A DNA stretch of 43,360 nt from contig WGAQ01000070.1 of NCBI GenBank assembly GCA_015494735.1, positions 1 through 43,360 of the forward strand. The letters run 5' to 3'. The translations under genes and the position numbers were made by a program. The notes under the pieces were generated by a model, which was not told where the DNA came from, ran no database searches, and saw nothing but the letters and a program-made list of their open reading frames with translations. Source of the DNA: a candidate division WOR-3 bacterium (lineage in GTDB: Bacteria; Hydrothermota; Hydrothermia; LBFQ01; DSFT01). Shown one piece after another: positions 1,107-32,665 of this stretch (positions within the stretch are counted from its first letter, which is position 1; the number at the start of each line of letters is the position of its first letter).

Positions 1107-1586
1107 ATGCTGGAACTTATGATAATCGGGCAGATGATGGGTCAGCACGCCCAGCAACATCCACATCTGGTGGAGAGGCACAGAACGTATAACATGGGAA
1201 AGATTCCGAAGGAATACAAGGGCCTGAAGAACCCCCTTAAGCCCACGAAGGAGAATCTGGCAGCGGGGGAGAAGATATGGAAGGAGCAGTGCGTGGCCTG
1301 CCATGGAGAGAGCGGAAAGGGCGACGGGCCGGCTGGAAAAGCCCTCAATCCACCGGCGGCTGACCTGGCATTCATCATGACCAGACCAATTGCACAGGAC
1401 GACTTCCTGTTCTGGACCATCTCCGAAGGGGGCGCCCAGTTCGGGACTGCCATGCCCGCGTACAAGAACATTCTTTCGGAAAAGCAGAGATGGCAGGTCA
1501 TACTGTACCTGAGGAAGAAGTTCACCGGAACTACCGAGCCCCCGAAGAGAATGCGCCACAGGATGATGCAACAGGGGACCAACTGA
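1107..1586 (+). CDS. Mono-haem class I c-type cytochrome
   Basis: 159-aa ORF with a single CXXCH (CVACH) in the typical context NPLKPTKENLAAGEKIWKEQCVACHGESGKGDGPAG. A distal Met region (FGTAMPAYKN) and the C-terminal helix RWQVILYLRK are present. Confidence 0.8.
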   Translation: MLELMIIGQMMGQHAQQHPHLVERHRTYNMGKIPKEYKGLKNPLKPTKENLAAGEKIWKEQCVACHGESGKGDGPAGKALNPPAADLAFIMTRPIAQDDFLFWTISEGGAQFGTAMPAYKNILSEKQRWQVILYLRKKFTGTTEPPKRMRHRMMQQGTN

Positions 1587-1618
1587 ACCATATGGGGGGA
1601 TTCTTCCCCTCGTCCCTA

Positions 1619-1624
1619 TAAAAT
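1619..1624 (+). promoter_or_regulatory. -10-like box TAAAAT, 6 nt upstream of the sucC ATG
   Basis: ctataaaattttgccATG: TAAAAT at 1619-1624, spacer tttgcc, ATG at 1631, no SD. Confidence 0.5.
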
Positions 1625-1630
1625 TTTGCC

Positions 1631-2776
1631 ATGAAACTCATAGAGTATCAGGCGAAAGAGCTCTTCAAGAAGTACGGCATGCCCATTCCTGAGGGCTACG
1701 TATGCAAAACCATAGACGAAGTCAAAGAGGTTCTGGAGAAACTTGAGTTCCCCGTAGTCATAAAGGCGCAGGTCCCCGTCGGCGGAAGGGGTAAGGCAGG
1801 TGGTGTCAAACTGGCATCCACCAGGGAAGAAGCCCTTCAGAAGGCGGAACAGATTCTCTCCATGGAAATCAAGGGAATTCCCGTAAAGAAGGTTCTCGTG
1901 GCCCATGCCGTGGATATAGCGAAGGAACTGTACCTGTCGGTGGTTCTGGACCGCAGGAACAACAAGGCTCTCATAATGGCGTCCAGAGAAGGGGGTGTGG
2001 ATATAGAGGAAGTGGCAAGGACCAATCCGGAGGCCATTCTGAAGAGGGACGTGGACCCCATAATGGGACTCAGGGATTTCGAGGCAAGGGAAATCGCCTT
2101 CTGGCTCTATCCTGACGATAAGAAGATTGCCCTGAAGATTGCGGGAATAATCAGCAAACTCTACAAATCCTATGTGGATGCGGAGGCCCAGCTGGCGGAG
2201 ATAAATCCCCTGGTGGTGGACCCGGAGGGGAATGTGTGGGTGGTGGATGCAAAGGTCATAGTGGATGACAATGCCCTCTTCCGCCATCCGGATATAGAGC
2301 AGATGAGGGACTTGGATTACGAGGACCCCAGGGAACTGGAGGCAAAGGAGTGGGGTCTCTCCTTCATAAAACTGGAGGGGAACATAGGAAATATGGTCAA
2401 CGGCGCCGGTCTGGCCATGGCAACAATGGATGTCATCAAGTACTACGGTGGTGAGCCTGCCAACTTCCTGGATGTGGGTGGCTCCTCCAATCCCGAGAAG
2501 ACCAGAAAGGCAATGGAACTCCTCCTCTCCGACCCCAACGTGAAGGCCGTATTCGTCAACATATTCGGCGGAATCACCAGGACGGATGACATTGCAAAGG
2601 GCCTCATAGAGGCATTCAAAACGCTGGATATAAAGGTGCCCGTGGTGGTGAGGCTCACCGGGACCAACGAGGATATAGCCCGCAGGATGCTGGATGAAAG
2701 TGGCCTGCCCCTCATAACTGTGAAGACCATGTCCGAGGGGGCGAAGAAGGCAGTGGAGCTGGCAAACAAATCCTGA
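1631..2776 (+). CDS. sucC: Succinate--CoA ligase (ADP-forming) beta subunit
   Basis: 381 aa. MKLIEYQAKELFKKYGMPIPEG... is an ATP-grasp N-terminus. The CoA-ligase C-terminal motifs NMVNGAGLAMATMD and VFVNIFGGITR are present. Confidence 0.95.
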   Translation: MKLIEYQAKELFKKYGMPIPEGYVCKTIDEVKEVLEKLEFPVVIKAQVPVGGRGKAGGVKLASTREEALQKAEQILSMEIKGIPVKKVLVAHAVDIAKELYLSVVLDRRNNKALIMASREGGVDIEEVARTNPEAILKRDVDPIMGLRDFEAREIAFWLYPDDKKIALKIAGIISKLYKSYVDAEAQLAEINPLVVDPEGNVWVVDAKVIVDDNALFRHPDIEQMRDLDYEDPRELEAKEWGLSFIKLEGNIGNMVNGAGLAMATMDVIKYYGGEPANFLDVGGSSNPEKTRKAMELLLSDPNVKAVFVNIFGGITRTDDIAKGLIEAFKTLDIKVPVVVRLTGTNEDIARRMLDESGLPLITVKTMSEGAKKAVELANKS

Positions 2777-2781
2777 TTCCT

Positions 2782-2806
2782 CCCCGCCGCCGGGCGGGGT
2801 TATTTT
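2782..2806 (+). terminator. Rho-independent terminator after sucC (hairpin abuts the convergent lipoprotein stop)
   Basis: CCCCGCC (2782-2788), loop gccg, GGCGGGG (2793-2799), followed by TTATTTT (2800-2806). It begins 6 nt after the sucC TGA. Confidence 0.65.
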
Positions 2807-3837
2807 CCCGAAGGGACGATTTTATAGAAAATTCCATCAACCGAAACCACACTTCCATGTAGAGTAATGGCAGGGTTTTCAGAGCGGCATGTGGCATGGA
2901 ATCTCACATAGGGTATGGGGATTATACCGATGAAAACTATTCCTATTGCCGCCGGGCGGCAGTCCAGATAGGAAAACTTTACGGGAACATACGCCCCCAC
3001 CCACCCGCCTCCCCTCCACATCCAGGCTCTTCCACCGACAGAAAATAATACCAGGGAATCGTGAACGAACATCCCCATGACCTCATTGCCGGAAACTCCT
3101 GAAGGAGGGGTAAAAGACAGATTTCCTGCTTTAATCATCTCACCGGACCAGTTCACAGGGCGGGCAAAGCCATTCACACATCCGACACCCCTGAACTCTC
3201 CTCCCACGGCCGATGTATCGATTCTGCCATTGAGATAAATCTCAAAGAATCTATTTCCCCCCACGAAGAACATCCCCACGGAGGAATCGCACAGAGCCCA
3301 ATCATCGGGAAAAGGGGCAGGAGCACGGATTATGGGTTTTCCATCCACATACAGCATGGGACTGCTGTAAGTCCCACCGATCCATACATTCTCCACCCTG
3401 AAGAATACACCACTGTCCACCGACGATTTGCTCCTCCACTCCATCAATCGATAGGGAAAATCCCCGGCAACCTCCACCTCAATACTGTGGGAGCGGTATG
3501 CAAGGAAGGAGCCACTTCTGACAGACAGGCTATGCCTTCCCTCATGGAGGGAGAGGGTTATCAGGGGAGTATCCGTTTCCATGTATTCCCTTCCATCTAT
3601 GTAAATCCTGAAGGGAGGTCTGGAAGCCCTGAACATAACAGAGCGATACAACACATCTCCTCCGAATGCCTCCTGGTAAAACCCGGGAGACGAGGAATAG
3701 GATGCCACTATTATGGAGAATTCCTCCGGCATCAGGGAGCCATCCTCCGGATACTGGATGGAAACATGCCTGGACGGAAATACCATCTCCACCGCGCATC
3801 CCGTAAGGAAAATTAAGGGTAAAACCCGGTGCCTCAT
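2800..3837 (-). CDS. Lipoprotein with PEGA-like domain, function unknown
   Basis: Track ORF 2800..4407 trimmed to ATG 3837-3835, which shares one nt with the permease stop (TGATG). The N-terminus MRHRVLPLIFLTGC is a signal peptide plus lipobox. The PEGA-like segment is RIYIDGREYMETDTPLITLSLHEGRHSLSVR. Confidence 0.7.
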   Translation of the reverse strand: MRHRVLPLIFLTGCAVEMVFPSRHVSIQYPEDGSLMPEEFSIIVASYSSSPGFYQEAFGGDVLYRSVMFRASRPPFRIYIDGREYMETDTPLITLSLHEGRHSLSVRSGSFLAYRSHSIEVEVAGDFPYRLMEWRSKSSVDSGVFFRVENVWIGGTYSSPMLYVDGKPIIRAPAPFPDDWALCDSSVGMFFVGGNRFFEIYLNGRIDTSAVGGEFRGVGCVNGFARPVNWSGEMIKAGNLSFTPPSGVSGNEVMGMFVHDSLVLFSVGGRAWMWRGGGWVGAYVPVKFSYLDCRPAAIGIVFIGIIPIPYVRFHATCRSENPAITLHGSVVSVDGIFYKIVPSGK

Positions 3838-4595
3838 CAGTAATGCCCCAGTATTCCCAGAAATTTTACCCTCCTCTCTATAAGGGAGTAAATCCACATC
3901 CCCGAAAGGAATACCAGAATGGAAGAAACCATAAGAATTATCACCTTCGGCAGGGGCAACTGGAGCAGTCCCAGATTCCCCCTCATGCTCATGGACAGGA
4001 GATGATACCCGCCGGTAAATGGAATTATATCCAGCACCCCCGGAGGGAGGAGGAAGAAAGCCACCACACCCATATTGAGAATCTGGAAGAGGCTCTGTAT
4101 GCGCTTGTAGAGGAGGGCAAGTCCTCCGAAAACATAACCCAATCCGTAGGCGGGGAGTATGGTAAAGAACAGGATGAATCCCACGGTCAGAACATCGATG
4201 TGGAGGAACTTCCCGCTTATGAGCATGATTATCAGAAGAAGGGGGATGGTGAACAGGAGGTTGGACAGGAAGGAGATACCCAGCATGGCGAGGGAGACCA
4301 GTTTGAATCCATAGGGGCTCATATAGAGTTGCTCCAGGGTTCCCTGTTCTGCTTCCGTGGTTATGCCCCACGTAAGGGTATTCATCCCGCCCAGGAGCCA
4401 GGACCACAGGAAGAATCCCACCACCAGAGCCTCCGTCGTATTCCCCAGATTGGTGGAATTACCCATTGCAAATCGGGCACCGAAGAGCAGTATGGAGAAG
4501 ATGATGACCACGGTTATGAGACCGGACAGGAAGTTGAACATATAGGACTTCATCATCTGTATCTCACGCATTACCATTGCCTGAAGCAGTTTCAT
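3837..4595 (-). CDS. ABC-2 type transporter permease
   Basis: 252 aa, multi-span hydrophobic protein (about 6 helices by eye). AGGAGG lies 9 nt upstream of ATG 4595. The gene overlaps the 3' end of the ATPase gene by 32 nt. Confidence 0.8.
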   Translation of the reverse strand: MKLLQAMVMREIQMMKSYMFNFLSGLITVVIIFSILLFGARFAMGNSTNLGNTTEALVVGFFLWSWLLGGMNTLTWGITTEAEQGTLEQLYMSPYGFKLVSLAMLGISFLSNLLFTIPLLLIIMLISGKFLHIDVLTVGFILFFTILPAYGLGYVFGGLALLYKRIQSLFQILNMGVVAFFLLPPGVLDIIPFTGGYHLLSMSMRGNLGLLQLPLPKVIILMVSSILVFLSGMWIYSLIERRVKFLGILGHY

Positions 4596-26156: not shown

Positions 26157-26831
26157 ATGAGACGACTCCTATTCCTTTCGCTTGCCATAGCGCTGGCAGG
26201 ATGCTCTTTTCTGCGCAATACCAATCAGGTGCAGGAGATAAAGGACCCCAAAGTTCTATATCAGCAGGCGATGGCTCTCTACGAACAGGGGGAATACAAG
26301 AAAGCACTTCCCTACTTCAGGAAACTCCTGTATGGAATGGGCATAAACGACTACACGGATGAAGCCCAGTACTACCTCGCCGCCACATACTACCACCTGA
26401 AGGAGTACGACCTGGCGATTCTGGAACTGGAATTCTTCATAAAAAACTTCCGATTCAGCGAACTGTATCCGGATGCTCTGCTACTCCTTGCAAAAGCCTA
26501 CGAGGGGAAGTACAGCAATATACACCTGGACATAAGTCCCCTGAAAAAGGGCCTGAAGTACGCGCAGAGAGCAAAAGAAATCCTCAAGGGAACGGATAAG
26601 GAAAAGGAAGCGGATGTAGTCATCAGGTCCATAAGGGAGAAGTTTGCCCGCAAGCACCTCCTGGCAGCATGGGTTTATAACAAACTGAAGAAGTACAAAT
26701 CCGAACTCCTCTATCTCGAACTGTATCTGAAAGAATATCCGGATATGGATAACGTGGATTCGGTCAGGGCAAGGGTGAAGGAGTTGAGGGAGATTGTCAG
26801 AGATGCAGAAAATTCTGGTAATAGGCGGTAG
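26157..26831 (+). CDS. bamD: Outer membrane protein assembly factor BamD-like TPR lipoprotein
   Basis: MRRLLFLSLAIALAGC is a lipobox. TPR-like repeats follow (LYQQAMALYEQGEYKKALPYFRKLL, AQYYLAATYYHLKEYDLAI, DALLLLAKAY), as in YfiO/BamD. Confidence 0.75.
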   Translation: MRRLLFLSLAIALAGCSFLRNTNQVQEIKDPKVLYQQAMALYEQGEYKKALPYFRKLLYGMGINDYTDEAQYYLAATYYHLKEYDLAILELEFFIKNFRFSELYPDALLLLAKAYEGKYSNIHLDISPLKKGLKYAQRAKEILKGTDKEKEADVVIRSIREKFARKHLLAAWVYNKLKKYKSELLYLELYLKEYPDMDNVDSVRARVKELREIVRDAENSGNRR

Positions 26832-27390
26832 ATTCGACCCCATCCACATAGGCCACCTCATAATAGCAGAGGACATGAAAGAAGAGTTGAATGTGGATAA
26901 AGTGTTCTTCATCCCCAGTTATAACCCGCCCCACAGGGAAGTGGAGACCCCCTTCGAGCACAGATACAATATGGTGAAACTGGCCATAGATGAGGAACCT
27001 TCCTTCACCGTAAGCGACATAGAAAAACGCCTCGGCCTGGAAAAGAGCTATTCCTATCTGGTAATGCAGGAATTCAAAAAGCAATTTCCCGATTCCAGAA
27101 TCCTCTTCCTCATAGGAAGCGACCAGTTCAAAACCTTCAAGACATGGTATAAATACGAAGACCTTTTGAATCTGGTGGAGGTGGTGGTGGCACTCCGGAA
27201 CACTGCCGACAAAAAGTATTACCCGAGGGACCTAATAGAGAGGGTAAAATTCGCCCACAACAGAATCATAGAGGTCTCAGCATCCGAAGTGCGCAGGAGG
27301 GCAAGGGAAGGGAAGCCCTTTCGATTCATGGTCAGAGAGCCGGTTTATCAGTACATTCTGGAAAATAATCTGTACAGGGAGGCGAAATGA
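26803..27390 (+). CDS. nadD: Nicotinate-nucleotide adenylyltransferase
   Basis: MQKILVIGGRFDPIHIGHL is the (H/T)xGH nucleotidyltransferase motif, and a late ISASEVRRR motif is present. The start is set at ATG 26803. The gene overlaps the bamD 3' end by 29 nt. Confidence 0.9.
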   Translation: MQKILVIGGRFDPIHIGHLIIAEDMKEELNVDKVFFIPSYNPPHREVETPFEHRYNMVKLAIDEEPSFTVSDIEKRLGLEKSYSYLVMQEFKKQFPDSRILFLIGSDQFKTFKTWYKYEDLLNLVEVVVALRNTADKKYYPRDLIERVKFAHNRIIEVSASEVRRRAREGKPFRFMVREPVYQYILENNLYREAK

Positions 27391-28058
27391 TTCTGGCAGT
27401 CGATACGACGACGAAATATCTATCGTCTGCAATCGCCGATTCGCGGGGGAAAGTAATACTGGAAATCAATCAGTATGAGCCATTCATGCACGCCGAGAGA
27501 ATCAACATAATAACCGATTTCCTCATAAGAGCATCCGGAAAGCAACCATTCGATATACGCCATCTAATAATATCAGAAGGACCCGGACTGTTTACATCCC
27601 TGAGGGTATCGGCCTCCTTCGCAAAGGGGTTCGCCGTAGTGTATCCCCATGTGAAAGTGGTTGCCATAAGTTCATTCCGGGCGCTCTGGTATCCATTCAA
27701 AGGGCATAAGGTGGCGGTCCTTCTGGATGCCAAGAAGCGGGAGGTCTTCGCCTCTGCATTCGACGAAAATGGAAATGTGATAATGGAGCCGACCATAATA
27801 AAACCAGCATACCTCTATGAAAAGCTGGGAGATGAATTCCTCTATGTAGGGGAGGGGGCGGAGATTTATAGGGACATCTTCAAGAACGTACCCCCCAACA
27901 ACCCCACCTTTCCCCACGCAAAGGACATGATTCCCCTTGCCATGGAGGAGATAGAAAAGGGGAACTTCGTGGATATAGACACATTCGAGCCCCACTACCT
28001 GCGCCAGCCCGACGCAGTGGTGAAGAAGAGAGGTTCAGAGTCCAAACCATCCCCTTAG
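27387..28058 (+). CDS. tsaB: tRNA N6-threonylcarbamoyladenosine biosynthesis protein TsaB (YeaZ family)
   Basis: MILAVDTTTKYLSSAIA...ISEGPGLFTSLRVSASFAKGFA is the TsaB/YeaZ ASKHA-fold signature. ATGA overlap with nadD. Confidence 0.85.
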   Translation: MILAVDTTTKYLSSAIADSRGKVILEINQYEPFMHAERINIITDFLIRASGKQPFDIRHLIISEGPGLFTSLRVSASFAKGFAVVYPHVKVVAISSFRALWYPFKGHKVAVLLDAKKREVFASAFDENGNVIMEPTIIKPAYLYEKLGDEFLYVGEGAEIYRDIFKNVPPNNPTFPHAKDMIPLAMEEIEKGNFVDIDTFEPHYLRQPDAVVKKRGSESKPSP

Positions 28059-28622
28059 GGTTTCAACCAGTTTCCTGAATGCCCTATCGCGACAGTTTTC
28101 CACATGATTTCTGTTTACCTTTCTTGCAATTTCTCGAAACAGGGATGGACTTTGAGGTCTTCCTACTTCCCTCAGTATCTTTTCAAATTCCTCTTTGGGA
28201 CGAGATGGCTTGAAATCGTACCGGGGCACTTTTTTGCCAAATATATCCGGAAACTTATCGGCCACTCCCCAGACCCATATCTCCAGTTCCGGTTTCACCA
28301 CTATAACTTCCACGTCATCCCTCTTCCATCGCGTATTCCTGACAACATTCTCCCCGATTTCTTCCTCCAGTTCCTCTGGAAGACCCTCGAAACCGCTTCC
28401 TTCATAGTCCAGAATCACCATAGCCTTCACATAATCGTCCTGATGAATCCTGAGCACTTCATGGGCACCTTTACGAACACCTGGATCCCTGTTGGGATGA
28501 TTAATAACACGGAACTCTATTGCTCTAATTTGTAATTGGTGCCGGGATTTCTCTTCAATAAGGGTTTCGATAACCGCTTTCATATCTTTATCGGCCACGA
28601 GAACTATAAGATCCCCCTTCAT
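28035..28622 (-). CDS. Small acidic alpha/beta protein, Toprim/DUF4276-like candidate effector partner of the upstream ATPase
   Basis: 195 aa, with no signal peptide or TM helix. Three hydrophobic-strand+acidic motifs: LIVLVADKDMK, MVILDYEGSG, VVKPELEIWVW. The start codon overlaps the ATPase stop (ATGA, 28619-28622). The 3' end overlaps the tsaB 3' end by 24 nt. The family call is by eye only. Confidence 0.5.
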   Translation of the reverse strand: MKGDLIVLVADKDMKAVIETLIEEKSRHQLQIRAIEFRVINHPNRDPGVRKGAHEVLRIHQDDYVKAMVILDYEGSGFEGLPEELEEEIGENVVRNTRWKRDDVEVIVVKPELEIWVWGVADKFPDIFGKKVPRYDFKPSRPKEEFEKILREVGRPQSPSLFREIARKVNRNHVENCRDRAFRKLVETLRGWFGL

Positions 28623-29899
28623 AACACCCCGCTTGCTATAAGACTATCCATGGAAACTTTTTTCTTCCAGTCCCTCAACTTGGGATGTACATTCCCGCGA
28701 ATTATATCAGTGGAACCCTTTTTCGTCTTTCCAAATATAAGCAAATCATGAAGTTCAGCCATAGCAAGAAAAACAGGCGAATGGGTGGCAACCAGAATTT
28801 GGTTTCCGCTCGTATAACCTCCCTTCAGGGACTGAAAAACCCCCTCTATGGCAAGGGGATGGAGTCCATTTTCCGGCTCTTCTATCATAAAAACACGCTC
28901 TCTGCGAGGAAGATACGGTATTATACTGAGTGCAAGGAATCGAAGGGTTCCATCCGAAAGAAGCCATGAAGGGGTGTCCAGGCTATACCTGTATTTGACA
29001 TTCAGATAAATGAAATTATTCTCCGGCAGTTTCCTCACATCTATGTCTTCTACATCGTTCAGGAATTCTTTCACATGGCTTACCCACCAGCGGAATCTTT
29101 CAGGATGCTCCCTCCTGAGAATATCCACAACTTTTGCAAGATTGGAACCGTCGGGGCGAAATCTTCCAGGGGTGTCAGGTGGTATTGGTTTCCTCATGGC
29201 ATCCGTATTAAGATGCATGAACACAACATTCTCTCCCAGAAGTCCCTTGAACCACAAAGAAGCCCTGAATCGATTTATATCTTCCAGAATTACGGACAGG
29301 AGAGACCTTCGGGGATCTATATCGAAATTCACATTGAATTTACTCGTTTCGGATCTCATATGCACCCTCGAGCCATATTCCTTTCTCCTTGCAACCAATC
29401 TATAACCGGACAAAGACCTGACATCAGCTCCCGATTCAGGAAGTATGGGTGTATCTTCCATGAGAGTGGGGAAATCGAACAGTCTGGTTCTAAGATGTCC
29501 CCTTCTGACTCTCTCGCTTACCAGATACAATTCCTCCCTATCAGGGCCAATCCCATCGTTTCCCGAAACGATTCGCACCTGATATCTGATGAACCGATAT
29601 CTTTTTCCAGTTTTCTTATTCAAATGCTCTTCTATTTCTGAAGGGATACGGGCATCTATACCGATTTCAAAAGCACTACCCTCCCCCTTCCATACAATTT
29701 CCTGGATTGTTCTTCCTCTTTTCAATACAGCACCGTGAAAACCCTCCTCCATAGTGAGAGCATCCCTCAAAAAAAGAAGAACATCGAGAAAGTTACTCTT
29801 TCCACTCGAATTGGGACCAACGAGGATGTTGAAAGATTCGAGTTCAACATTTACCCTCTTCAAACTCTTGTAATGCCTCACCTCCACCCTTTCCAGCAC
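28619..29899 (-). CDS. Soluble ABC-type ATPase of the AAA_15/AAA_21 (RecF/SMC-like, OLD/AriA/AbiL-type) class
   Basis: Walker A GPNSSGKSN, then ~280 aa of insert, then LSDGTLRFLAL (signature/Q-like), Walker B + D-loop VFMIEEPENGLHP and H-loop VATHSP. GTG 29899 (VLERVEVRHYKSLKRVNVEL) is chosen because TAAAAT lies 7 nt upstream. An alternative ATG at 29941 would overlap the polX start. Confidence 0.85.
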   Translation of the reverse strand: MLERVEVRHYKSLKRVNVELESFNILVGPNSSGKSNFLDVLLFLRDALTMEEGFHGAVLKRGRTIQEIVWKGEGSAFEIGIDARIPSEIEEHLNKKTGKRYRFIRYQVRIVSGNDGIGPDREELYLVSERVRRGHLRTRLFDFPTLMEDTPILPESGADVRSLSGYRLVARRKEYGSRVHMRSETSKFNVNFDIDPRRSLLSVILEDINRFRASLWFKGLLGENVVFMHLNTDAMRKPIPPDTPGRFRPDGSNLAKVVDILRREHPERFRWWVSHVKEFLNDVEDIDVRKLPENNFIYLNVKYRYSLDTPSWLLSDGTLRFLALSIIPYLPRRERVFMIEEPENGLHPLAIEGVFQSLKGGYTSGNQILVATHSPVFLAMAELHDLLIFGKTKKGSTDIIRGNVHPKLRDWKKKVSMDSLIASGVL

Positions 29900-29906
29900 G
29901 CCAACT

Positions 29907-29912
29907 ATTTTA
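29907..29912 (-). promoter_or_regulatory. -10-like box TAAAAT, 7 nt upstream of the ATPase GTG
   Basis: Minus strand reads tttaaaatagttggcGTG. Confidence 0.45.
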
Positions 29913-29926
29913 AAGCCACGGAGCAG

Positions 29927-29932
29927 TAAAAT
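29927..29932 (+). promoter_or_regulatory. -10-like box TAAAAT, 7 nt upstream of the polX ATG
   Basis: agcagtaaaattaaattcATG. The box is only 14 bp from the oppositely oriented ATPase box. Confidence 0.5.
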
Positions 29933-29939
29933 TAAATTC

Positions 29940-31694
29940 ATGGACAACAATCAGAAACTGGCAAAGATATTCGATGAAATCGCAGATGCTCTCGAATTCC
30001 TGGGAGAAAATCCATTCAAGGTCAGGGCTTATAGAACTGCCGCCCGGATTCTCGAGGGGCTGGATAAGGACATAAGCTGGTATATCGAGCACAACAAACA
30101 GATCAAGGGAATAGGAACCTCCCTCAGGGCAAAGATTAAGGAATTTCTGGAAACGGGGAAGGTCCGAAAACACGAGGAACTGCTCCAGAAGGTGCCGAAG
30201 GGTATATTCGAGGTAATGGCGATTCCCGGCGTGGGACCAAAGACAGCGAAGATTCTATACGATAAATTCGGTGTAAAGAGCATAGAGGATTTGAAGAAGG
30301 TGCTAGAAGACGAGAGAATCTACCAGCTCAGGGGGTTCGGTCCGGGTAAGGTGAAGAATATAAAAGAGGGACTGGAGCTCTACGAGAAAGCCCACAGCAG
30401 ATTCCCGATAGGATTCGTCTACCAACCCATTATGGAACTGAAGGACAGAATTTCAAAAATAGAGGGGGTCCATCGAATAGCCGTCGCAGGCTCATTCAGA
30501 AGGATGAAGGAGACGGTGGGGGATATCGACATACTCATAACCACAGACAGACCCGCGGAAGTGGGAAACGCCATTGTGAATCTCCCCAATATAGAGAGGG
30601 TTCTCCTCAAGGGTATGACGAAAATCTCCTTCATCTATACTCTTCCCCGCGACCAGCTCATACAGGTGGATGTGAGAATCGTCAAGGATGAGAACTGGGG
30701 AGCATCCCTCATGTATTTCACAGGCTCGAAGGAACACAACATCGCAGTCAGGGACATAGCGATAGAGAAGGGCTACAAGTTGAACGAGTATGGCCTCTTC
30801 AAGGATGTTCATGTAATCGCCAGCAGGACGGAGGAGGAGATTTACGAAGCACTGGGCATGCAGTATATACCCCCGGAGCTCAGGGAAAACAGAGGCGAGA
30901 TAGAAAAGGCTCTCCGGCACGAGATTCCACGACTCGTTGAATTGAAGGACATAAAGGGGGACCTTCAGGTCCACAGCGTATATTCCGATGGACAGATGAC
31001 CTTCGAGGAGATAGAAAAGCACGCTCTGGAGCTGGGATACCAGTATGTGGCAGTAACGGACCACTCCTACAGCCTGAAAGTGGCAGGGGGACTCGAGGAG
31101 AGCAGGCTATTCGAAAAAATGGAGAAGATAAGGGAATTCAACAAGAAATCCAGAGTGAAGCTCCTCATGGGGGCAGAGGTGGAGATCAGGATGGATGGAA
31201 CCCTGGATTACCCGGATGAGGTTCTGAAGGAACTGGATATAGTGCTGGCATCCGTACATAACGTCAGGAAGAACGAGGACATAACACAGAGGTATCTCAG
31301 GGCAATGGAAAGCCCCTATGTAGATATAATCGCCCATCCCACCGGACGTCTGGTAACAGGCAGGAAACCCTACCCATTCGATGAGGAAAAGGTCTTCAGG
31401 ACAGCCGCAGAAAGGATGGTTCTCATGGAGATAAACGCCCATGCCAACCGTCTGGATCTAAACGACATCATGATAATGCGGGCAAAGCCCTACGGAGTCA
31501 AATTCTCACTGGGAACCGATGCCCACGGGAAGGGAAACATGTGGATGATGGTTCTGGGAGTGGGACAGGCGAGAAGGGCATGGCTGACTCCGGAAGATAT
31601 AGTCAATACCCTGGACCTGGATGAATTGATGGACTTCATAAAGAAAGCGAGAAAACACAGGGAGAAGATGTTGAAGGAATCCAGAAAACAGTAG
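29940..31694 (+). CDS. polX: Family X DNA polymerase with C-terminal PHP (3'-5' exonuclease/phosphoesterase) domain
   Basis: 584 aa. The N-terminus has the lyase-domain-like HhH segment (LAKIFDEIADALEFLGENPFKVRAYRTAARIL) and the HhH motif IPGVGPKTAKILYD. The palm has GSFRRMKETVGDIDILI. The PHP domain has DLQVHSVYSDG...AVTDHS...LGTDAH. Confidence 0.9.
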   Translation: MDNNQKLAKIFDEIADALEFLGENPFKVRAYRTAARILEGLDKDISWYIEHNKQIKGIGTSLRAKIKEFLETGKVRKHEELLQKVPKGIFEVMAIPGVGPKTAKILYDKFGVKSIEDLKKVLEDERIYQLRGFGPGKVKNIKEGLELYEKAHSRFPIGFVYQPIMELKDRISKIEGVHRIAVAGSFRRMKETVGDIDILITTDRPAEVGNAIVNLPNIERVLLKGMTKISFIYTLPRDQLIQVDVRIVKDENWGASLMYFTGSKEHNIAVRDIAIEKGYKLNEYGLFKDVHVIASRTEEEIYEALGMQYIPPELRENRGEIEKALRHEIPRLVELKDIKGDLQVHSVYSDGQMTFEEIEKHALELGYQYVAVTDHSYSLKVAGGLEESRLFEKMEKIREFNKKSRVKLLMGAEVEIRMDGTLDYPDEVLKELDIVLASVHNVRKNEDITQRYLRAMESPYVDIIAHPTGRLVTGRKPYPFDEEKVFRTAAERMVLMEINAHANRLDLNDIMIMRAKPYGVKFSLGTDAHGKGNMWMMVLGVGQARRAWLTPEDIVNTLDLDELMDFIKKARKHREKMLKESRKQ

Positions 31695-31702
31695 ATTTTC
31701 GC

Positions 31703-32665
31703 CTACACTATTTCCAGTTGCAACATCCGGAGTAGTTGTTCGTAATCGTATGCCAGGGACCTGTCCAGATTATCGAAGGAATATCTAACAGGCAATATAA
31801 TGGATCGGAAGGGTAAGGATCTGGGAAAATCCTTTGCCACCAATATGCCTCCCGCCACTTCGGAGCCCATTTCATCCATATAACCCTTCAATTGTTCGAA
31901 ATCCTTTCTCGAAGCCCTGCCTGTTTTCACCTCTACGAGCAGGTACATATTCCGCGCAGATGGATGTCGTGGTTTTATAAAAATATCTACATAACCTTCC
32001 GGAAGAGCTTTTTCACCAAGTACCTCCATTTCGCCGGAAGAACCCTCTATTCCAAAAATTTCCATCGCATTCTGCAGGACAGTCTTTCTGATTTTCTTCC
32101 TCACCAGCGATTGGAGTATAAGTTCCCTGAAATAGAATTTCTCCGGAATATGCTGATTTCTTCTGTCGAACACAATTCTGGGTATGAAAGGTTCCGCATC
32201 CAGTTCCAGAGGTTCTGGTTGACCGTGAGATGGAGTCCCCATTTCCGACACTTTATAAAAGGTAATCGTATCTGCATGAAAATGCGTCTTCCTGTAGCCT
32301 CCCCGCAGGAGCAAATTCTCGGCAACATACGAAAACTCCGGTCTGACCATGGACTCCTCGAATTCCCTCTTCTGCTGTAGAAACAATCTGAAGGGAAAAC
32401 TATATGTTCGCCCCGATTGAAAGGTGATAGGAGGCCATGGAGGAAGCCTTTCGGCATTCCTGTAAGCGACTTTCCTCACCACCTGATATAGATTTCTCAC
32501 CCTGCCTCCATACAGAAACGATATGTAGTCTCCAATTTCTATATCGAGAAAAGTCCACAGCCCATTTATACTGCTTGTAAATCCCGCCATAGCATATTTT
32601 ATACATAGATCCAGATTTTTCCTGTTGGAAACGGAAACGAGGAAATAAGCATTCTGTTTGCCCAT
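31703..32665 (-). CDS. PUA-like (EVE/ASCH-type) reader domain fused to NucS/DUF91-like PD-(D/E)xK nuclease domain; candidate modification-dependent restriction enzyme
   Basis: 320 aa. N-terminal [24 protein letters not shown]...[22 protein letters not shown] has an EVE-like strand/helix pattern. The C-terminal [10 protein letters not shown]...[24 protein letters not shown] carries D...E-x-K and a downstream QL..Y, as in NucS-type nucleases. A TAAAAT box (32679-32684) lies 13 nt upstream. Confidence 0.5.

Follow-up and report, generated by a model that had tools for sequence, protein, structure and literature searches.

A methylation-associated defense system (MADS) was reportedly described by Maestri et al. 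in 2024 (Cell Host Microbe 32:1412). A canonical operon, found here on a Piscinibacter plasmid, encodes a helix-turn-helix (HTH) protein, the MAD2 methylase, MAD3, MAD4, MAD5, a kinase, MAD7 and an 1858-aa protein, so that mad3-mad4 has the MAD2 methylase gene on one side and that of the S-like MAD5 on the other; the Piscinibacter proteins score 1015 (MAD2), 547 (MAD3), 233 (MAD4), 469 (MAD5) and 658 bits (MAD7). The present analysis concerns a 43,360-nucleotide stretch of DNA from a candidate division WOR-3 bacterium (GenBank assembly GCA_015494735.1, contig WGAQ01000070.1, positions 1 to 43,360; hereafter the window), in which two adjacent minus-strand genes encode full-length homologues of MAD3 and MAD4. 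In the literature, 'MADS3-4' is grouped with AbiL among ABC (ATP-binding cassette) ATPase plus TOPRIM systems, and PARIS is composed of the ABC ATPase AriA and the DUF4435 Toprim protein AriB (PMC11464382). HEC-01, for Hma-embedded candidate 1, likewise pairs an ABC ATPase with a TOPRIM protein (Payne et al., bioRxiv 10.1101/2024.01.29.577857). That an initial annotation of the locus likened the pair to PARIS and OLD is in keeping with this literature (PMC11464382, where 'MADS3-4' is listed), but the description of the pair as an uncharacterised family was an over-reading and is corrected here, because the pair falls in a family already named by NCBIfam (NF047739 and NF047734) and by the PADLOC models mad3 and mad4, and its ATPase matches HEC-01: the cassette is the mad3-mad4 module in a divergent form that stands alone. 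Judged by profile homology, the pair belongs to the named MAD3/MAD4 family as a two-gene representative without the rest of the system, is related to the PADLOC candidate HEC-01, and by analogy it probably functions as an autonomous conflict module of the PARIS/OLD kind, in which a sensor ATPase is coupled to a Toprim nuclease.

The upstream gene of the pair (28619-29899, minus strand, GTG start) encodes a MAD3-like soluble ABC ATPase of 426 aa. Its reading frame is open upstream to a TTG at 29950, and the GTG at 29899 was accepted as the correct start because the orthologues are 426 aa long and the NCBIfam MAD3 profile aligns with residues 1-426. The motifs first quoted for the two products are all present in the translations; those of the ATPase are Walker A (GPNSSGKSN), a signature-like LSDGTLRFLAL, the Walker B/D-loop VFMIEEPENGLHP, with the core MIEEPENGLHP, and the H-loop VATHSP, a long insert separating Walker A from the signature motif. 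Placement among soluble ABC ATPases of the AAA_15/AAA_21 type, as originally suggested, agrees with a Pfam AAA_21 match (1.4e-29, residues 23-378). Alignment with NCBIfam antiphage_MADS3 (NF047739) extends over residues 1-426 and positions 1-427 of 427 (E 3.8e-124, 415.1 bits); at the sequence level homology to MAD3 is certain, with the curated cut-off of 420 bits narrowly missed. The best PADLOC model is HEC-01A (PDLC04178; E 9.5e-45, 151 bits, residues 2-399), followed by mad3 (114 bits) and a generic AAA_21-like AriA (107 bits). The ATPase thus scores at the level of HEC-01A, but HEC-01 lies within Hma, whereas the window pair is not Hma-embedded. Identity to MAD3 of the canonical Piscinibacter operon is 30%, and a sequence search of the PDB matched the N-terminus to GajA and the C-terminal half to an OLD-family nuclease.

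The downstream gene (28035-28622, minus strand) encodes a 195-aa MAD4-like protein, the predicted metal-dependent nuclease effector of the pair. Residues 4-193 align with positions 2-205 of 206 in NCBIfam antiphage_MADS4 (NF047734; E 2e-46, 158.7 bits, cut-off 160), and the protein also matches PADLOC mad4 (7.9e-10) but reaches HEC-01B (PDLC04202), over its full length, only at E = 0.011, while its identity to the canonical MAD4 of the Piscinibacter operon is 28%. PADLOC mad4 is matched by 117 of 119 aligned relatives, HEC-01B (PDLC04210, at <= 1e-3) by 48 and Pfam DUF4276 by 20 (best E 1.2e-8); DUF4435/AriB gave no Pfam or PADLOC match with the 195-aa protein or with any of these 119. An AlphaFold2 model (pLDDT, a predicted score for the local distance difference test, 95.4; predicted template modelling score, pTM, 0.90) has a core of alternating strands and helices, b1-a-b2-a-b3-a-b4-a, followed by a helical C-terminal part. 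Three motifs that had been singled out as hydrophobic strands with acidic residues, LIVLVADKDMK, MVILDYEGSG and VVKPELEIWVW, correspond to strands b1, b3 and b4 of the model and contain invariant acidic residues. Across the MAD4-like family D11, H42, D46, D72, E74, E112 and E114 are invariant or nearly so, and the catalytic motifs of the window protein are intact: D11 follows b1 and D72-x-E74 follows b3, the first acidic residue being Asp, not Glu. A published classification counts DUF4276, with Mad4 named, and RloB as members of the Toprim superfamily, in which strand 1 is followed by an acidic residue and strand 3 by DxD (PMC12065111). A Foldseek search of BFVD viral models returned an RloB-like protein as the top match (E 2.7e-4, probability 1.0, TM 0.52/0.48), with weaker matches to topoisomerase, primase and Toprim proteins. 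The original proposal of a Toprim/DUF4276-like partner is in accord with the DUF4276 matches of the relatives (20/119), the RloB-like fold match and the published superfamily assignment (PMC12065111), and the protein is accordingly assigned, provisionally and from sequence and model, to a DUF4276/RloB-related Toprim-like family of predicted metal-dependent nucleases.

Two overlapping minus-strand ORFs (open reading frames) had been reported, and both their coordinates and the junction could be read in the sequence: an ATGA at 28619-28622 (...GTGTT-ATGA-AGG), in which the TGA stop of the ATPase gene shares bases with the ATG start of the 195-aa gene, indicates translational coupling. The same gene order and 4-nt overlap occur in the Piscinibacter operon. 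Unlike the eight-gene MADS, the window pair has no linked methyltransferase. A tblastn search of the 43-kb window with the Piscinibacter MADS set found only MAD3 and MAD4 at E <= 1e-3, with MAD1, 2, 5, 6, 7 and 8 absent, and tblastn with MAD2, a type IIG methylase and Dam methylases gave nothing in the window better than E = 0.2.

The family extends well beyond MADS operons. MAD4-like proteins number at least 1612 matches in a 90% clustered database, some of them named 'MAD4' or 'DUF4276 family protein', and form 1745 clusters at 50% identity (E <= 1e-3) among 1.84 billion representatives, all of them single-domain proteins of roughly 200-220 aa. Genomic context was counted in the best 80 metagenome loci, out of more than 465 relatives found, plus eight annotated contexts from different phyla. 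In the eight annotated contexts, the MAD4-like gene follows an AAA_21 ATPase gene of 414-428 aa, mostly with a 4-nt overlap, and no other MADS gene is present. In the metagenome loci every MAD4-like gene for which upstream sequence is available is immediately preceded by a MAD3-like gene, and the 4-nt overlap is found at 62 of 75 junctions; the two genes are obligately paired, and MAD1, 2, 5, 6, 7 and 8 were found in 0 of the 80 loci. Enough flanking sequence on both sides was available in 29 loci, none of which has an adjacent methylase, and the 94 proteins encoded around the pair in 12 long loci have mostly metabolic roles. In one of the 80 loci the pair adjoins HsdR together with an ABC-3C gene. 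Plasmid records that matched the ATPase number only nine. Two stand-alone pairs, one from an Armatimonadota metagenome-assembled genome (MAG; L011) and one from Cystobacter fuscus CP022098 (L012), exceed the equivalog cut-offs of NCBIfam, and in the former the small protein has been named 'methylation-associated defense system protein MAD4'; since neither has a methylase or other MADS gene within 10 kb, the MADS annotation over-reaches in both. Because most close relatives stand alone, labels containing 'methylation-associated defense system' imply a context that is absent.

A different arrangement was seen in 11 of the 80 loci, where MAD3 and MAD4 belong to a four-gene operon whose first two genes encode a type IIG-like N6 methylase and a 377-aa protein. 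In L027 (5492-10588) it comprises a 707-aa Eco57I/MmeI-type N6 methylase, the 377-aa protein without a Pfam match, and MAD3-like and MAD4-like proteins; the same operon subclade includes L042, L035, L093, L048, L040, L030, L031, L034, L038 and L050. In L027 and L042, 4-nt overlaps join the 377-aa gene to its neighbours. Together with the locus beside HsdR, these operons are conflict-type neighbourhoods that speak for a defence reading; the arrangement itself is a possible 'mini-MADS'.

Comparison with characterized systems provides a template for how the stand-alone pair might act. PARIS, like the window pair, joins a soluble AAA_15/21 ABC ATPase to a separate small Toprim effector, and in PARIS the ATPase scaffold senses a trigger and frees a tRNA-cutting nuclease. 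The effectors differ, AriB being of the DUF4435 type and the window protein of the DUF4276/MAD4 type, with no match at the level of AriB, and PARIS is often found on satellites or phages, whereas a scan of viral contigs found no relative of the window pair. In OLD and GajA the ATPase and Toprim domains are part of one polypeptide, in contrast to the two separate ORFs of the window, and Gabija requires the GajB helicase, whereas no helicase gene neighbours the window pair. RloA/RloB pairs are restriction-linked, and an RloB-like protein is the top structural match of the small protein. From these likenesses we infer complex formation, a trigger, a substrate and a defence phenotype for the window pair. 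By analogy with PARIS and OLD, oligomers of the ATPase would hold the co-translated Toprim protein in an inactive state. The trigger, either a phage-derived cue or disturbed DNA metabolism, perhaps sensed via the large insert of the ATPase, would then lead to ATP-dependent release or activation of the Toprim protein, which would cleave nucleic acid at its acidic metal site (D11, D72-x-E74, E112/E114). Such cleavage might end the infection, possibly at a cost to the cell.

The pair is flanked by housekeeping genes: nadD, tsaB, polX and genes for a YfiO-like lipoprotein, an ABC exporter and a CitMHS transporter surround it. The previously reported distances to the immediate neighbours are correct, the 195-aa gene overlapping the convergent tsaB by 24 nt (28035-28058) and a 40-bp gap (29900-29939) separating the ATPase gene from the divergent polX. 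This gap, which is 32-41 bp in the relatives L001 and L003, is too short for two independent promoters; no sigma-70-like site was found in it, and no promoter or terminator signals above shuffled expectation were found around the pair. The composition of the pair is atypical. The initial annotation had called the cassette AT-rich against 55-58% G+C in sampled infB and polX lines, a contrast that was overstated, as the two genes have 44.6% and 45.6% against a window mean of 51%, and their immediate neighbours 47-51%. The codon composition nevertheless bears the claim out: G+C at third codon positions (GC3) is lower in the two genes of the pair (0.444 and 0.443) than in any other ORF of the window, the mean for 30 other ORFs being 0.639 (standard deviation 0.055; z ~ -3.6), and the same dip is present in the orthologous pairs of two relatives.

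The tsaB|polX slot is occupied by the pair in at least five WOR-3 lineages. In L017 the pair is 98-99% identical to that of the window, and identities of MAD3/MAD4 are 94%/78% in L001/L002, 88%/74% in L018, 86%/72% in L003-L005 and 67%/59% in L099/L100, MAD4 being the more divergent protein in every WOR-3 comparison. Synonymous divergence (dS) of the WOR-3 pair is 0.6-3, which is saturated, and the ratio of nonsynonymous to synonymous divergence (dN/dS) is 0.04-0.15, like that of the neighbouring genes; therefore the pair is old at this slot and under purifying selection. Recent horizontal acquisition, for which low GC3 might have spoken, was ruled out by the synteny in at least five lineages together with the saturated dS, and with it the recent island implied in the initial annotation, the pair being vertically kept. 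The same annotation had held that a pair universal at the locus and native in composition would count against a conflict cassette. Vertical retention at the slot goes partway toward that outcome, but the composition is non-native, and the pair varies among close relatives in both presence and sequence. A contig search with PolX returned one locus, L014, a WOR-3 MAG contig (JALSOK010000063.1) that lacks window positions 28200-29776 by blastn. Its positions 1-1390 correspond to window 26819-28199 and 1396-3260 to window 29777-31667, so that a deletion of 1577 bp has removed most of both genes while polX has been kept. The scar (L014 1232-1532) joins the first ~41 ATPase codons, through Walker A, out of frame to the last ~53 MAD4-like codons. 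In L099/L100, by comparison, identity to the window is 94-96% for the YfiO-like gene, nadD and polX and only 67%/59% for the pair, with a dN of 0.26-0.30 for the pair versus 0.02-0.03 in the flanks, which indicates a divergent allele in the same slot. The deletion in L014 and the allele in L099/L100 mark the pair as accessory.

Several observations weigh against an autonomous defence module. Both NCBIfam scores of the pair fall slightly under the curated cut-offs, and the 195-aa protein itself has no Pfam match, DUF4276 included. A Foldseek search of its model against the PDB returned nothing at E <= 1e-3 and no Toprim protein in the top 50, and a MAD4 family profile, searched against PDB sequences, yielded no more than chance-level matches; in view of this lack of a solved-structure match, the Toprim assignment rests on the DUF4276 matches of relatives, the RloB-like BFVD match, motif logic and the literature. 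HEC-01, the nearest and only tested stand-alone relative, gave no protection in E. coli against any phage tried (bioRxiv 10.1101/2024.01.29.577857). Most contexts of the pair consist of housekeeping genes rather than defence islands, and no relative was found in 2.9 million IMG/VR viral contigs. At the borders of the window pair no tRNA, convincing flanking repeats or integrase were found, nor does the window contain any tRNA. Finally, stable inheritance in WOR-3 with neighbour-like dN/dS is unusual for defence genes, which turn over fast.

Some of the same evidence would fit a role in DNA repair or maintenance, in the manner of RecF-RecR or a class 2 OLD nuclease and tied in WOR-3 to the divergent polX. 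The short gap with polX (32-41 bp) is found in every pair-bearing WOR-3 genome, the pair has been retained for long under purifying selection, housekeeping neighbours predominate in other phyla as well, the IMG/VR scan found no viral copies, and the N-terminus of the ATPase is weakly similar to RecF/SMC proteins. That similarity, however, is limited to residues 2-74, where the score for the RecF equivalog TIGR00611 is 28 bits (cut-off 172), so the ATPase does not reach the level of a RecF equivalog. The link with polX is confined to the WOR-3 clade, polX being absent both from the families listed for the eight annotated contexts and from the top 25 of the 12 long loci, and L014, although a close relative, lost the pair yet kept polX. 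Sporadic occurrence of the family (1745 clusters among 1.84 billion representatives), its recurrence in methylase-based defence operons and the atypical codon composition of the pair likewise argue against a repair function, which appears decidedly unlikely.

A second variable slot lies on the far side of polX. In the window it holds a gene outside the pair (31703-32665, minus strand; GC3 0.474) for a 320-aa protein with a YTH/EVE-like reader and a NucS-like PD-(D/E)XK domain. In Foldseek searches with an AlphaFold2 model (pLDDT 92.5), the N-terminal half matched MJECL36 (2p5d) and the m6A (N6-methyladenosine) readers YTHDC1 and YTHDF2, and the C-terminal half matched NucS (2vld); from the model, the protein is predicted to be a methyl-adenine-dependent nuclease or restriction enzyme. 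Archaea, among them Thermococcus and Archaeoglobus, have homologues with 60-71% identity, a finding suggestive of gene transfer across domains of life. The PADLOC mad2 profile also matches this ORF (E 1.8e-6), but the match spans only the generic PD-(D/E)XK domain; the protein is a complete, highly conserved member of the YTH/EVE-NucS family, and a remnant of MAD2 was therefore rejected. In L001 (5700-6944) and L003 (5695-6940), the polX|CitMHS slot contains instead a PDDEXK_11 protein and a Dam-type (MethyltransfD12) methylase, and DNA homology between the window and its relatives stops at ~31667-31671 and returns at ~32690. The slot looks like one in which methylating and methylation-dependent systems alternate, and the position of polX between two conflict-type cassettes lends modest support to a defence role for the pair.

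The contents of this slot also bear on whether the pair might be the restriction arm of a dispersed methylation system, a split or 'mini' MADS that would cut DNA unmarked by an unlinked methyltransferase. The place of mad3-mad4 between MAD2 and MAD5 in canonical MADS, the operon with the methylase and 377-aa protein in 11 of 80 relatives and the Dam-type methylase beyond polX, 2 kb off, in L001 and L003 are consistent with such an arrangement. In the window itself, however, the Dam slot is occupied by the nuclease with a predicted methyl-adenine reader, an enzyme that would not be compatible with Dam-type methylation, and no homologue of a MAD2, type IIG or Dam methylase was found within the 43 kb, a part of the genome; nor is a methylase adjacent in the 29 well-flanked loci. 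A restriction arm is accordingly quite improbable. A selfish addiction cassette resembling a toxin-antitoxin (TA) system, in which the ATPase restrains a nuclease toxin, would explain why the pair is kept without benefit to the host. It would fit the tight translational coupling, the description of AAA_21 in Pfam as a putative AbiEii toxin domain (type IV TA) and the scattered single insertions amid housekeeping genes, but it is very improbable given that L014 lost both genes together cleanly, that mobile-element features and enrichment on plasmids or phages are lacking (nine plasmid records, 0 viral contigs), and that both genes have stayed under purifying selection while synonymous divergence became saturated, which speaks for a benefit to the host.

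An autonomous sensor-ATPase and Toprim-nuclease module thus remains the favoured account of the window pair. A broader proposal, tentative and on balance unlikely, is that stand-alone MAD3-MAD4 pairs form a distinct widespread class, mostly of uncultivated lineages, methylation-free and outside defence islands, that would act either, vertically kept, in PARIS-like, trigger-sensing abortive infection with slot-specific turnover of alleles or as a RecF/RecR-like maintenance module repeatedly borrowed by MADS and Hma. If this class does work autonomously, or in a non-immune role, automatic naming of such pairs as MADS would be misleading. As a discovery the pair is by itself incremental. The WOR-3 slot, however, offers a clean natural comparison, the pair being kept in several lineages, deleted in one and present as a strongly divergent allele in another, and knowledge of what a stand-alone pair senses and cuts would explain the role of MAD3-MAD4 in MADS and that of HEC-01 in Hma.

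Two minor observations concern other genes of the window. TsaB (27387-28058, plus strand) is 80-82% identical to its counterpart in every relative but L017, even where nadD is 88-94% identical, and tsaB, which abuts the pair, seems to diverge faster than its neighbours. Elsewhere in the window, the only other strongly low GC3 value, 0.478, belongs to a 535-aa ORF at 2800-4407 (minus strand), which may be a foreign gene or a call in the wrong frame.

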